From Malacoraja senta (Eukaryota): 64,000 bases of DNA. Positions 2,161 to 63,682 of the stretch are shown in pieces. The notes under the pieces were generated by a model. The model was not told the origin of the DNA. It saw nothing but the letters and a program-made list of their open reading frames with translations, and searched no databases. Location: the NCBI GenBank assembly GCA_038087875.1, contig CM075989.1, positions 24,554,001-24,618,000 on the forward strand, given 5' to 3'. Every line of letters starts with the position of its first letter. The stretch's first letter is position 1. Position numbers and translations under genes: made by a program.

Positions 2161-4115
2161 GTAAGGATTGTAAGAAACTAATTCATCTGTTTCATATTGA
2201 AATCTATCGCAAGAAAGGTGGTCAAGTTAAAAGAATTGTATCAGTATTCCCTTGCACTGTGTTGGAGGTCTTTGTGCTGTATCTTGACATAAGCTCCCAA
2301 TTGGTGCAGATTCATGAACTGATTCCAGAACTAATCATGATATGTAACAGCCACGCCTAGTTACTGCAAAGATAGTTCTTCAACTTGTGATGAGCCAAAC
2401 CTGTTTTTGTTATTGTGTCCTTTTTTAAACTTTCTTCATTATGGTACCTGGACATCTAACAGCAATTAATCTGCCTTGATAAAGCATATGGAGCAACACA
2501 AATTTAAATTGCATCTATTTTAATGGGAGGAGCATGATTAATAAATGATTAGCACAGGGGATATAATATTGTTTTTATCAGGGACCTGGGTGAAAGAGAA
2601 GCAAGAGAAAGAGAAAAAGAACGCTAGATTATAAAATCAATAATGATAGGGGCAGGGGGCAGGAAGCTGGGAATGAGAATGGAAAAGAAGTGATGTTTCA
2701 TTGATTATGAAGTCCATAACTATAGCAATGAGGGAGATTACCCAAGAAACTTCCTCAAATATTGGTACAGATTAGTAGCAAAAAGGGGATGATCACATCG
2801 TGAAGACTGCTAACAATCAGTAACTAGAGGAGCAGCAATGTAGGCAAACCACAGAGAGGAGTGAGAATAATAGGATTTATGCAGAGGGGAATTTCAATTT
2901 CCCATATTAACTGAGATTGCTTTAGCGTTAAAGCTCAGAGGGAGTGAATTTTTAAAGCGCGTCCGAGATAACTTTTTGAGCCAGAATGTTGTACGTCTTT
3001 GGAGTGTGGGAGGAAACCTAAGATCTCAGAGAACACCCACGAAGGTCACAGGGGGAACGTACAAACTCCGTACAGACAGCACTCCGTACAGGATCGAACC
3101 AGTGTGTCTGGCGCTGGAAGGCAGTAGGTCCACCACTACACCACCATGCCGATCTAGTAATTTAATCTAATAATTTAAAGAAAATTGTTTGCCACTTGAA
3201 TTTTTCCCAGTACTTAGATGTACAACCTGTAATATCTTCCTTCCACTCCTCTACATTACACCTTCTGTTGAAAGCTGTGTGTGTGTTTGTGCTGTCACTA
3301 GACACAGTTATTCCATCTGGTGAGTTGGCCGGCCTCCCGTCTTCAACCAACTAATACTTCAAATTTACAATTCTAATCCGTGTATTGGAAGCCCCCCGTG
3401 GTCTTGCTTCTCTGGATTTCCACTTAGACATTCCTCTCAGGGTTCTATGTTTCCTACATTTGGTTCATGTGCATCCTCTATTTACATTACTCCACATTGG
3501 TGGCTGTGAAGGCTGTAAATGTTGAAAATCACTTCCAAAATATCCTTTAGTGAAACTCAGAGTGTTGGAGTAACCTAGTGAGTCAGGCAGCCTCTGTGGA
3601 GAGAATGGATAGGTGATGTTTTCTGTCAGGACCCTTCTTCAGACTACCCAAAATGTCACCTACACATTCCCTCCACAGATGCTGCTTGACTCGCTGAGTT
3701 ACTCCAACTCTTTGTGTTTTACTCAGGTTTACAGCATCTGCAGTTCCTTGTGTCCTCAAAGTCTCCTTCGTTCTGGACCATTCCTGTGTTATGGCACTGT
3801 GTAAAATTTACCATCTAGATCAGGTGTTTAAAGATCATAACAAATGTGTCTTTGGCCTGGTGTTGCTGTTATTCTCATGATGCTCTTATACTGGACTAAT
3901 CTTTGGAAGTCTCTTTAACTGGAAGTCTCCATAATTTAGGAAGTAGTGCCCGAGGAGGGGGGTTTAGAAGAGAAGGGGTGTAAGGGGGAATTTAAGGGAG
4001 GAGGGAGGCAGAGAGACTTTTGAAGTATATTCTATGGTTTATCCCTGGTGGCCATCAATGGTGAAATGAATGAAGTGGGAGTTGGAGGAAGGCCAGCTGG
4101 AGGGGAGAGATTATA

Positions 4116-5692
4116 CAGTACCCTCCATAATGTTTGGGACAAAGACCCATAATTTATTTATTTGCCTCTGTACTCCACAATTTGAGATTTGTAATAGAAA
4201 AAAAAAATCACATGCAGTTAAAGTGCACATTATCAGATTTTATTAAAGGGTATTTTTATACATTTTGATTTCACCATGTAGAAATTACAGCTGTGTTTAT
4301 ACATAGTCCCCCCATTTCAGGGCACCATAATGTTTGGGACACATGGCTTCACAGGTATTTGTAATTGCTCAGGTGTGTTTAATTGCATCCTTAATGCAGG
4401 TATAAGAGAGCTCTCAGCACCTAGTCTTTCCTCCAGTCTTTCCATCACCTTTGGAAACTTTTATTGCTGTTTATCAACATGAGGACCAAAGTTTTGCCAA
4501 CGAAATTCAAAGAAGCCATTATGAGACTGAGAAACAAGAATAAAACTGTTAGAGACATCAGCCAAACATTAGGCTTACCAAAATCAGCTGTTTGGAGCAT
4601 CGTTTAAAAGAAAGAGATCACTGGTGAGCTTACTAATCGCAAAGGGACTGGCAGGCCAAGGAAGACCTCCACAGCTGATGACAGAAGAATTCTCTCTATA
4701 ATAAAGAAAAATCCCCAAGCACCTGTCCGACAGATCAGAAACACTCTTCAGGAGTCAGGAGTGGATTTGTCAATGACCACTGTTCGCAGAAGACTTCATG
4801 AACAGAAATACAGAGGCTACACTGCAAGATGCAAACCACTGGTTAGCCGCAAAAATAGGATGGCCAGGTTACAGTTTGTCAAGAAGTACTTAAAAGAGCA
4901 ACCACAGTTCTGGAAAAAGGTCTTGTGGACAGATGAGTCGAAGATTAACTTATATCAGAGTGATGGCAAGAGCAAAGTATGGAGCAGAGAAGAAACTGCC
5001 CAAGATCCAAAGCATACCACCTCATCTGTGAAACGCAGTGGTGGGGGTGTTATGGCCTGGGCATGTATGGCTGCTGAAGGTACTGGCTCACTTATCTTCA
5101 TTGATGATACAACTGCTGATGGTGGTAGCATAATGAATTCTGAAGTGTATAGACACATCCTATCTGCTCAAGTTAAAACAAATGCCTCAAAACTCATTGG
5201 CCGGCGGTTCATTCTACAGCAAAACAATGATCCCAAGCATATTGCTAAAGCAACAAATGAGTTTTTCAAAGCTAAAAAAATGGTAAATTCTTGAGTGGCC
5301 AAGACAATCACCCAATCTGAACCCAATTGAGCATGCTTTTTATATGCTGAAGAGAAAACTAAAGGGGACTAGCCCCCAAAACAAGTATTGGTGATGTCCA
5401 TGAATCGCAGACTTCAAGCAGTCATCGCATGCAAAGGAATGCAACAAAATACTGAACAAGACTACTTTCATTTACATGACATTGCTGTGTCCCAAACATT
5501 ATGGTGCCCTGAAATGGGGGGACTATGTACAAACACTGCTGTAATTTCTACATGCTGAAACCAAAATGTATAAAAATGGCCTTTATTAAAATCTGACAAT
5601 GTGCACTTGAACGACATGTGATTTTTTTTCTATTACAAATCTCAAATTGTGGAGTACAGAGACAAATGTCCCAAACATTATGGAGGGCACTG
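4116..5692 (+). mobile_element. Full-length Tc1/mariner DNA transposon (IR-DR type, family A), 1577 bp, defective
   Basis: TA|CAGTACCCTCCATAATGTTTGGGAC ... GTCCCAAACATTATGGAGGGCACTG|TA. TIRs of about 210-230 bp, each with an inner direct repeat (CCATAATGTTTGGGAC). TA target duplication. Confidence 0.96.
4479..5455 (+). pseudogene. Tc1 transposase pseudogene
   Basis: ATG at 4479, in-frame TAA at 4605-4607, GRPRKT and WTDESK motifs. Second catalytic Asp changed (QQNNDPKH), +1 frameshift in the A run at 5274-5280 before WP.QSPNLNPIE. Confidence 0.9.
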
Positions 5693-6055
5693 TAAATGCA
5701 TTAGGGTCAGCAGGAAGTTTACAACTGTGGATCTCAATCTCAATAAAGTGAACTCATTATTTATTAGGCACATTTTAAACTTCTCAGCTTGGCTGCTTAG
5801 TGTGTTTTGGAGAGTACAAATGTTGACAAATCTATGTCAAGCACACACTAGTGTGTTCTTAGTTCTAGTGTGAAATGCTGATTCAGAATTTATATTGTTT
5901 TTTTCATGGAGAAATATATACCTTAAACTGAGCATTTAATTGATGGGTTTTACTTTTTTATATGACATTTCTTCAGAGGCTATTTTGTGTTGAATTGCAT
6001 CTCTAAATATTTAAGGAAATCATGTTTTAAAATGAGTCTCCCTGTGCTTCCTCAG

Positions 6056-6240
6056 GTCGAGTCTATGCAGTCCTGTCCAAACGTGCAGGCCGGGTGTTAC
6101 AGGAAGAGATGAAGGAGGGAACAGAAATGTTCATCATCATGGCGGTTTTACCAGTTGCAGAGAGCTTTGGTTTTGCTGACGAAATCAGGAAACGGACCAG
6201 TGGCCAAGCCAGCCCACAACTCGTGTTCAGTCACTGGGAG
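6056..6240 (+). CDS. EFL1: EFL1 penultimate coding exon (domain V)
   Basis: Acceptor cctgtgcttcctcAG, encodes (G)[61 protein letters not shown], donor GTAGAG at 6241. Phases match both neighbouring exons. Confidence 0.97.
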
Positions 6241-62189: not shown

Positions 62190-62258
62190 ACTGATAGGGG
62201 GTGGGGAGAAGAAAGGAAAAAAGGAAAAGGGCCTTCTTAAGATAATCCTCTAGATTAT

Positions 62259-62558
62259 GGGCAGTGCAGCGGTAGAGTCGCTACTTCCCAGCACCAGGGA
62301 TCCAGGTTCCATCCTGACTACGGATGCTGTCTGTACAGAGTTTGCACATTTTCCCTGTGACCGCATGGGTTTTCTCCAGGTGCTCTGGTTTCCTCCCACA
62401 CTCCAAAGACGTGCAGGTGTGCAGATTAATTGGCTTCGGTAAAAATTGTAAATTGTCCCTGGTGTGTAGGAGAGTGCTAGTGTACGGGGTGATCGCTGGT
62501 CGGTGCAGACTCACTGGGCCGAAGGGCCTGATTCAACGCTGTATCTCTAAAGTCTAAA
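62259..62558 (+). mobile_element. HE1-like V-SINE
   Basis: Consensus match. Confidence 0.85.
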
Positions 62559-63294
62559 GATTAAAGGTGTGAAATACACGCAAAGCATCGAACACAAACC
62601 CTTTATTATTTCTTAAAATGTCCGTCAAATCTAAAACTATTTTGTTAACCCGGTATTTTTGCAACGGTCTCTTCACCATTTTCTCTTGGACAACTCCTGC
62701 TTGACCTGAGTGAGGTATAACAGCCCGTTATGGAGTATCTGGAGTATCGAACCAAACATTATGTTGGAGATATTCAGCAGGTCAGGCAGCATCTGTGGAG
62801 AATAAAACAGAGTTAATGCTTCAGCTTATTAACTGCTCTGATCAAGGGACGTTCTGATGAAGGGCTAACAACTTGTTTCTCTCGTTCCAGATGCTGCCTA
62901 ACCTCCTGATTTAACCTCTGTTTTAATTTTTGGTTCAATACTCCAGATGTTATCTCCAATGTTTCAGATTTTATTTTAGTTTACCAATATCTTCAGGTTT
63001 TTATTTACTTGCAGCTGTTCCCTAAACAGCCTTGGGAAGGTCGATGAGAGTCAGCATTGCCTTGTGGATTCTCCTTCCTACAATATTGGGATCAGTAGTG
63101 TACAACTTTGGGGAACTCAAATATAAAGCCCTTCATATCCTCGCACTTTATAACAAAATGCACCAAAGCATTATAAAACCATAAGACACAGGGGCAGAAT
63201 TAGTCCGTCTACACCGACATTCATTCATAGCTAATCTAGTTTTCCCATCTCAACCCCATTCTCCTGCCTTCTCCCCGTAATTTTAATTGTAACT

Positions 63295-63682
63295 ATTTCA
63301 TGACCCACAACAGATATCCAGGATAATATCTATCTACTATTGGGCAGCTTACAACCCAGTGGTATGAACATTGATTTCTCTAATTTCAAGTAACCCCTCC
63401 ATCCCCTTCCCCTCCCTACCCATCCTACTAGTTCCACCGTACATATCCCTGTATCCTTCGTTATCTCCTCTTCCACAGCCAACAATGAACCATTGTGGGC
63501 TCCCACCCTTCCTCACTCATCTGTTACCAGACCTGATTTGTTTTGGCCTTCTCCCACCTCTAGTTTCCCCCACCCCCTCTACTTTCAGTCTAAAGAGGGG
63601 TTCCAACCCGAAACGTCACCTATCCATGTTGTCCAGAGATGCTGCCTGACCCGCTGAGTTACTCCAGCACTTTGTATCTATC
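63295..63682 (+). mobile_element. Penelope-like element 3' remnant
   Basis: LGSLQPSGMNIDFSNFK* endonuclease tail followed by UTR and pLTR with a decayed hammerhead core. Confidence 0.7.

Follow-up and report, generated by a model that had tools for sequence, protein, structure and literature searches.

A minimal hammerhead motif of a Neptune-type Penelope-like element in the skate Malacoraja senta and its short dispersed copies, likely made from uncleaved RNA

Described hammerhead-bearing elements and the skate window

The dimer logic, the low activity and the genome-wide scatter of the minimal hammerhead ribozymes (min-HHRs) of metazoan Penelope-like elements (PLEs) have been published (PMC4209133; review PMC6765202), and the role of the hammerhead in these elements is stated as unclear (PMC8557442). 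The present analysis was done on a stretch of 64,000 nt from the skate Malacoraja senta (GenBank assembly GCA_038087875.1, contig CM075989.1, positions 24,554,001 to 24,618,000 of the forward strand), hereafter the window, in which a hammerhead motif is carried by pseudo-long terminal repeats (pLTRs) of a PLE and by short repeats derived from them. Window positions are those of the whole stretch; within the motif, C3 was numbered 0 and cleavage was expected before +28. Taken as a whole, the evidence makes it quite probable that the core has been kept intact in the source lineages of the element and that the dispersed copies are neutral short insertions, likely made from uncleaved RNA. The copies represent a very large natural data set on the role of hammerheads in PLEs. 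The association of PLEs with hammerheads is already known; what is added here is the statistics of the copy ends, a 66-bp derivative and a second ribozyme-headed repeat.

The skate motif shares with the PLE min-HHRs of Cervera and de la Pena 2014 (PMC4209133) the CUGANGA box followed by an extra base, G10.1-C11.1, GAAA, the palindromic 15.2-16.2 and the NUH triplet, together with a U-rich 5' flank, the location in pLTRs and the mostly single, dispersed occurrence; its 4-bp helix II and 2-bp helix I lie at the short end of the published range, and cases with a 2-bp helix I are included in the published alignment. The 61,500 exact cores found in 1.94 Gb of the skate genome compare with about 9,000 motifs in Xenopus tropicalis and 4,000 in the coelacanth (PMC4209133; descriptors differ), and the axolotl has 126,247 canonical hammerhead motifs (PMC7229834). 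With 32 exact cores per Mb, the skate exceeds the densities that follow from the counts for Xenopus and for the axolotl (genome of about 28 Gb), with the reservation that the descriptors differ. No cartilaginous fish was found in the searched parts of the main text or of supplement file 2 of PMC4209133, and no report of a cartilaginous-fish PLE hammerhead was met in the literature searched, most subscription journals and repeat databases lying outside its coverage.

A likeness in mechanism is offered by PAc (Poseidon, Anolis carolinensis; Frangieh et al. 2024, PMC11167929), in which, as is likely for the skate PLE, two internal starts of the reverse transcriptase (RT) give an optional tail, uncleaved RNA is the substrate of insertion and no reads end at the cleavage site. 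The start codon of PAc lies inside the ribozyme, whereas that of the skate PLE lies 163 nt after C3; a Cys linker of the Neptune/Nematis kind is present in the skate PLE, unlike PAc, and the short solo product and the 5' hot spot reported below are not described for PAc in the searched parts of that paper. The Cys linker between the RT and the endonuclease (EN) marks Neptune/Nematis PLEs (Craig et al. 2021, PMC8557442), and these EN-bearing (EN+) elements agree with the skate PLE in the DKG-motif RT, the CX2-5CxxC linker, the C-terminal GIY-YIG domain, partial tandems, inverted 5' copies and a tail of 30-40 bp. The skate open reading frame (ORF) differs in being about 1,200 codons long and in having an extended, Pro-rich N-terminal part, and its putative clade was read from motifs.

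Non-LTR retrozymes (PMC7229834; bioRxiv 10.64898/2026.07.22.740005) resemble the skate units in being non-autonomous, pLTR-related and hammerhead-bearing; they are described as derived from pLTRs and excluded from introns (bioRxiv 10.64898/2026.07.22.740005), a study in which one cartilaginous fish was sampled and whose tables may contain the skate family. The skate units differ from them in being mostly solo, shorter than a monomer and not excluded from the host gene EFL1, and in spanning the cleavage site, and the 66-bp arrays differ in lacking the 5' half of the ribozyme. A promoter and an intron have been described in a Drosophila PLE (PMC2377424). Solo pLTRs with a cap-derived G, PLE-derived subtelomeric minisatellites and a repeat headed by a ribozyme like that of the hepatitis delta virus (HDV) were without report in the literature searched, the coverage of which is partial.

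The motif, its carrier and its abundance

The motif is composed of a 2-bp helix I strand, CUGAAGA, an extra A, a helix II of 4 bp closed by a 4-nt loop, GAAA, CG, U and C or U at the cleavage site. All of the positions C3-U4-G5-A6-N7-G8-A9, G12-A13-A14, A15.1-U16.1 and H17 are present in the five exact window copies, in the 61,500 genomic ones and in 7/7 subfamily consensuses; the unpaired base between 9 and 10.1, G10.1-C11.1 and a 4-bp helix II also belong to the motif. The 15.2-16.2 step is palindromic without a loop 3 (ACGU in 7/7 consensuses), and helix I was 2 bp in 26 of the 37 descriptor hits of the skate PLE family and 4 bp in one. The minimal type I architecture, the extra A after A9, the ACGU palindrome and the 2-bp helix I that a sequence-only reading of the window had pointed out are borne out and fit the published min-HHR consensus. 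As judged from its sequence, the motif is the minimal type I hammerhead of the pLTR of a Neptune-type PLE; its kind is known, while the host group and the high density are new.

Conservation was estimated from seven consensuses obtained as k-means clusters of 396 copies (1.8-17% diverged), the set including loci chosen for intact cores or long ORFs. None of the 21 core and stem positions varies among them, as against 14 of 55 downstream positions (p=0.008), and where bases close to the core do change (in the loop, from U-A to U-G pairs, or between C and U at H17), pairing or H17 is retained. Pair counts gave no two-sided helix covariation within the genome, where the helix II changes are one-sided. 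In distant PLE relatives (29-56% identity, metagenome contigs), a sense-strand hammerhead was found by descriptor in 12/80 loci, most of them about 100-130 nt past the ORF, and 6 further hits were antisense; their common form has two-sided changes, C-G for G-C in helix I and C-G for U-A in helix II. Two-sided covariation against these relatives amounted to 9 cells, where shuffles averaged 4.0 and slid controls never exceeded 2. Of the two signs of function named beforehand, core conservation was seen across the consensuses, and helix covariation was missing within the genome and present against the distant relatives. Two points weigh on the other side: the consensus clusters are mutually related, so the p value is generous, and the distant relatives are mostly of one family, so only about two independent lineages are represented.

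A covariance-model search, which had been suggested as a check, did not detect the motif: the Rfam hammerhead models gave no match in the window at E<=10, and the microRNA matches of the same scan were simple repeats or inverted pairs. The relatives' minimal motif was missed by Rfam too, yet a canonical one was found in L307. The latter is a type I hammerhead (RF00163, 56 bits; L307 1992-2036, minus strand) that lies on a metagenome contig next to a distant PLE homologue. RNAalifold on 24 copies returned no consensus hammerhead fold. The youngest subfamily, to which the window cores at 54428-54455 (-) and 62162-62189 (-) belong, has a GUU triplet, which is weaker than GUC, a competing predicted 6-bp hairpin covering G12-A14 and a 6-nt palindrome through which, in a dimer, A14 would come to pair with U17; these features are predicted to weaken cleavage. 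In two subfamilies, changes that looked compensatory by eye hinted at an extended distal helix I, with 4 pairs some 16 nt downstream, but folding did not predict it and it was rejected. Older copies with C for A after G8 were observed at L089, L072 and L075 and possibly form a separate old subfamily.

As had been read from the letters, a GIY-YIG ORF precedes two of the window cores. The stop at 54573 lies 118 nt ahead of the core at 54455 and ends a 5'-truncated PLE ORF (54573..55658, minus strand) with the end of the RT (YIDD), the C-x4-C-x2-C linker and the GIY-YIG endonuclease, matched by Pfam PF01541 with E=3e-4, which is under the family cut-off; its identity was 96-98% to the best 112 other sites of 115,618 first-look candidates. 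The older one (30753..31432, minus strand) is a frameshifted ORF end with linker and GIY-YIG, 79 nt ahead of the core at 30674, recognized by a translated YIGET motif (no Pfam match at E<=0.001); the core at 30674 is broken by a change of A13 to C. Full PLE ORFs have 1159-1224 codons with RT and GIY-YIG, and tandem and inverted copies exist. The 1224-codon frame was matched by RVT_1 (E=6.5e-6) and GIY-YIG (E=1.5e-3), both under the Pfam cut-offs, with DKG, YIDD and YIGET motifs present. The hammerhead motif was located 3' of the ORF in 15/16 long-ORF loci, with the core 80-120 nt past the GIY-YIG stop, and in a tandem locus (L019) the core lies between the ORFs, with the next ATG at +163 (163 nt past C3), which bears out the proposed origin of the motif from PLE pLTRs. 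The C-x4-C-x2-C preceding GIY-YIG fits the CX2-5CxxC RT-EN linker by which Neptune/Nematis are recognized, and the EN+ hallmarks (partial tandems, inverted 5' copies, and a 30-40 bp tail seen as two 3' end clusters 36-38 nt apart) are present. By its Cys linker, the carrier is provisionally classed as a Neptune-type Penelope-like retroelement.

Genome-wide, exact cores occur once per 32 kb, with none for the reversed-pattern control. In 80 evenly placed 10-kb stretches (800 kb), the unit of about 140 nt gave 336 matches of at least 30 bits, covering 4.2% of the sample, and 210 core-anchored units; by extrapolation, about 5 x 10^5 core-bearing copies are present, roughly 1/8 of them exact. The earlier estimate of one core per 2-3 kb accordingly stands for remnants and fails for exact cores. 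Most copies are solo insertions of 95-135 nt and not paired pLTRs, so that a dimer partner in cis is usually missing.

All five cores given as intact were recovered by pattern search, with C3 at 11362 (+), 43405 (-), 53774 (+), 54455 (-) and 62189 (-), the earlier minus-strand coordinates being the opposite ends of the same 28-mers; the exact pattern had no match in 40/40 first-order Markov shuffles of the window. The core at 11362..11389 (+) has 3 pairs in helix II and belongs to a solo unit of about 135 nt (11359-11493), sense in the last EFL1 intron, and the one at 43378..43405 (-), found by pattern and profile search, has a GUC cleavage triplet. The core at 53774..53801 (+) forms the right arm of a head-to-head inverted pair (53678-53905), the junction of which is a TCAG-T-CTGA near-palindrome. 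The core at 54428..54455 (-) lies within the 3' pLTR of the truncated PLE, and the unit of the core at 62162..62189 (-) extends through the tail, from 62060 to about 62231. A sixth core (44936..44963, plus strand; profile search) has its catalytic nucleotides intact and one helix II mismatch.

Ends of the copies and their fate after insertion

Among 395 unit matches, the 3' ends fell in two clusters. In 95 young copies, the 3' ends were at +91..96 in 58, at +128..134 in 25 and elsewhere in 12, and by analogy with described elements the two clusters are taken as the 'tail' sites of the PLE. The 5' ends of the same 95 copies were at -6..+11 in 45 (29 of them at -6..-1), at -11..-235 in 22 and beyond -240 in 28, with none at -7..-10; the loss per base at the 5' side was 6.1% in the hot spot versus 0.19% further upstream, a difference of about 30-fold. 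A target-site duplication (TSD) of at least 7 nt was found at or near the junction in 23 of the 45 hot-spot copies and an inverted arm in 14, and several ends at -4..-6 are explained by microhomology with the target. The 197 anchored copies comprise 103 that break off immediately ahead of the core, 50 with an inverted arm there and 44 that continue upstream. The 5' end thus lies within a few bases of the core in about half of the young and most of the old copies and often abuts the TSD. No peak of 5' ends was seen at the cleavage site (+28) among the 395 matches, the two nearest 5-nt bins holding 7 and 9. Since the 5' ends lie just before the core and not at the cleavage site, the templates appear to have been uncleaved. 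Cleaved RNA was considered as the main template and rejected on the missing peak.

Upstream of the core, no word other than TCAGT, which lies 3-5 nt away, is shared by every subfamily (44 long copies, 86-93% per base); TCAGT resembles the initiator consensus. A copied cap would add a G, and the ratio of G to A before the putative start A was 2002/1655, versus 704/735 at a control position (odds ratio 1.26, p=2e-4). An initiator-like TCACT has been noted in a rotifer pLTR (PMC3846280).

These ends would be explained as follows. The RT-endonuclease of the PLE would nick the target and start reverse transcription at one of the two internal sites, for which the anole element offers an in vitro precedent; a start on the front pLTR of the transcript would run off at the RNA 5' end after 95-135 nt, at the initiator-like TCAGT, and solo ribozyme-bearing units would in this way be mass-produced. 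That run-off at the transcription start site explains the 5' hot spot is the account we lean towards, by a slight preference. Several results tell against it. The G excess is small: in 30 G-preceded loci inspected, a clean single G outside the TSD was found in 2 and a G taken from the target in 2, the rest being ambiguous or with longer additions. A cap-G count on 103 old short copies (9 G of 19) was too small to weigh either way. The 5' ends are spread over about 17 nt instead of one base. The 95 young copies were the first matches on contig C1, with inverted pairs counted twice, and an exact match at +15..+70 was required of them, which makes this sample blind to ends at +28. Contigs of seven runs guessed to be RNA, from other organisms, had no end pile-up, which speaks neither for nor against, as assembled contigs cannot show starts.

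Once inserted, the copies decay like neutral DNA. Across the 396 copies, differences from their own consensus amounted to 6.1% at non-CpG core positions and 6.4% at invariant downstream positions; CpG sites differ in 15-26% of copies, including G12, which is in a CpG and is lost in about 1/4 of copies. G12 is the general base of the hammerhead (PMC6155905). By its homologues, the best at 94%, EFL1 puts the genome among the skates. The gene spans 165 kb and ends at 32832, with exons at 1125-2165, 6055-~6240 and 32644-32832 of the window; mapping of the exons placed the 11362 core, as the sequence-only reading had it, in the sense strand of the last intron (6259..32643, plus strand; 5' boundary approximate). 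In the whole gene, core-spanning copies were 43 sense versus 31 antisense (p=0.20) and exact cores 5 versus 0. EFL1 is a single gene and thus a small test of sense depletion, which limits what can be drawn from it. With neutral decay and no sense depletion in EFL1 introns, cutting of host pre-mRNA is unlikely; the relevance suggested for host pre-mRNA was not supported, given in addition the loss of G12 and an active fold that is not predicted, and the dispersed copies are most likely inert by-products. A core kept in the sources and covarying with distant relatives, yet accompanied by insertions that likely come from uncleaved RNA and are undepleted in the introns of EFL1, a housekeeping gene, points to a gated role within the element's own cycle. 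Slow cleavage is predicted, with a second copy or the protein of the element as a requirement, and it would serve the multimeric RNA of the element and not host pre-mRNA.

The same element could also have produced the hot spot if the RT stalled or folded back at the core region (helix II hairpin, near-palindrome, C-rich tract). The inverted arm directly upstream in 50 of the 197 anchored copies, the joining of several inverted copies at the TCAG/CTGA near-palindrome, the predicted pairing of the two ends of the short unit and the spread of ends over -6..+11 would all agree with this, but the outer edge is sharp, with none at -7..-10 and several of the -4..-6 ends owed to target microhomology, the ends lie beyond helix II and not ahead of it, and the G excess at -4 and TCAGT as the sole shared upstream word favour run-off; stalling is a possible but somewhat doubtful cause. 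The pyrimidine tract and CAG before the core might be read instead as a splice acceptor, with short copies from spliced RNA, as the long tract followed by CAG is found in all subfamilies and the pLTR intron of Drosophila virilis ends at helix I (PMC4209133). Against that, the TSDs adjoin the 5' end directly, neither a shared nor a host exon intervening, and the U-rich flank belongs to the general min-HHR consensus. No GT..AG joint into CAG was seen among the joints shown in the contigs of the seven runs, which cannot show absence. The idea is quite improbable, and for the solo copies a spliced origin was rejected on the TSDs of at least 7 nt at or near the junction in 23/45 hot-spot copies.

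Two further explanations concern the motif itself. If the dispersed exact cores were active, they could cut host pre-mRNAs or pair between neighbours and so shape the transcriptome; the 61,500 exact cores, the five sense ones in EFL1, the finding of the unit in contigs of the runs guessed to be RNA (other organisms) and the cleavage of the anole PLE ribozyme with its protein present (PMC11167929) speak in favour. The lack of EFL1 sense depletion and the neutral decay make it unlikely, as do the 2-bp helix I in most descriptor hits (26/37), a predicted helix I probability of about 0 in 9/9 copies, in which the active fold was not populated, a dimer-compatible fold 11-14 kcal/mol above the predicted minimum, and the poor cleavage of published min-HHRs even as dimers (PMC4209133). 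The opposite proposal, that the motif is a chance or non-ribozyme sequence kept as a promoter or protein-binding site, would suit the absence of an Rfam hammerhead match, of two-sided covariation within the genome and of a predicted active fold. It is nevertheless highly improbable, because all catalytic positions are present, the distant relatives show two-sided covariation (9 cells, versus 4.0 in shuffles and 2 or fewer in slid controls), and Rfam, while detecting the canonical motif in L307, misses the minimal motif of the relatives as well.

66-bp arrays and other repeats of the window

One subfamily has given rise to a 66-bp tandem unit, corresponding to about +20..+85 of its pLTR and therefore without the 5' half of the core. 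Seven arrays were found in the window: 23658..23980 (-, 4.9 units), 37570..37775 (+, 3.1 units) and 42515..42657 (+, 2.2 units), the latter two with permuted ends and no pLTR head; 44590..44715 (-, 1.9 units); 45776..46099 (-, 4.9 units) and 61220..61417 (+, 3.0 units), each behind an older diverged head; and 52127..52432 (-, 4.6 units), flanked by a head and a tail that are both older. Exact 66-bp junctions numbered 15,265 genome-wide, with 20 in the window and 23 in the adjoining 200 kb. None occurred in the 80 evenly placed 10-kb samples, and 5/20 samples within 5 Mb of contig ends contained them (p=2e-4); on contig C1 there was no junction before 2.69 Mb and then 100 within the next 0.7 Mb.

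The inner units differ from the majority by 0-4% per bin, and in 22 array heads the divergence rises to 33% away from the first junction, partly since some arrays are headless. The heads fall in several older subfamilies, which together with the headless arrays with permuted ends suggests that the unit came into older copies at a later time, by way of homology. Compared with the parent subfamily, it has two base changes, which lengthen its predicted hairpin. Spread by DNA gene conversion among chromosome ends and spread by rolling-circle copying of a small circle both fit. A wider scheme can be put forward tentatively, and we regard it as unlikely in its entirety: uncleaved capped Penelope mRNA, primed internally on the front pLTR, would yield a run-off repeat of the size of a short interspersed element (SINE), making up about 4% of the genome, and a 66-nt ribozyme-less circle with a strengthened RT-binding hairpin would be copied by rolling circle and home into older copies near chromosome ends. 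Were this true, an autonomous element would mass-produce its own ribozyme-bearing short repeat, and the 66-nt circle would in turn parasitize this parasite. Testable predictions on PLE priming, termination and non-autonomous spawn follow from the 5' hot spot and the arrays.

Tandem repeats of 150-450 bp with one hammerhead each were absent from the window and were met at L224 (contig C1, about 28.90 Mb), where 13 head-to-tail 384-bp whole-pLTR copies with an exact core in each form a retrozyme-like array.

A second ribozyme is associated with a dispersed repeat of about 195 bp, present in the window at 50997-51189 (-) and having 1,430 first-look candidates, whose first nucleotide is also the first G of an HDV-like ribozyme. 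The start was at this G in 20 of the 39 best matches and within 6 nt upstream in 38/39, and it was confirmed in 8/8 loci inspected (L385-L392). GAA repeats close the unit, and TSDs are present; of four copies scored against the Rfam model of the mammalian CPEB3 ribozyme, two exceed its cut-off of 35 bits (37.1 and 36.5), and the window copy has a broken P3. Because this repeat begins at the predicted cleavage site, a cleaving ribozyme can mark 5' ends in the genome, a mark that the hammerhead is without. The GAA-type tail is of the RTE type, and the repeat may be a SINE mobilized by RTE. A bearing on where the CPEB3 ribozyme came from is possible.

The profile search of the window also recovered 20/20 of the sites listed earlier as decayed or partial. 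It gave 34 alignments overlapping the core, 32 of them scoring above 20 bits, and some 26 additional pLTR units, either decayed, partial or inverted, were placed on both strands at 3545..63685. Their C3-equivalents are 3642-, 6848-, 8832-, 11699+, 12056+, 20065-, 24001-, 29726+, 30033+, 30674-, 35163+, 35525-, 36448+, 43507+, 44734-, 46125-, 46252-, 46271+, 46467+, 52474-, 53772-, 57840-, 60299-, 61200+ and 63590+, with an inverted arm at 3630+. Between two pLTR units, at about 57845-57935 (+), the tail and the start of the PLE ORF (MPTLKKF) were recognized, this copy extending beyond the usual 3' ends.

Among the remaining repeats, remnants of Tc1/mariner transposase lie inside EFL1 introns at 4608-5294 (+) and 17047-17983 (+). 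The coding region of a Ty3/Gypsy-type LTR retrotransposon at 38047-42255 (-) consists of a gag-like frame and a pol frame of 1065 codons, the latter encoding RT, RNase H and integrase. An abundant tRNA-derived SINE, which resembles HE1, occurs at many sites of the window (e.g. 13750-13900, 46750-47050 and 58400-58700), with a 78-bp tandem at 24482-24711.

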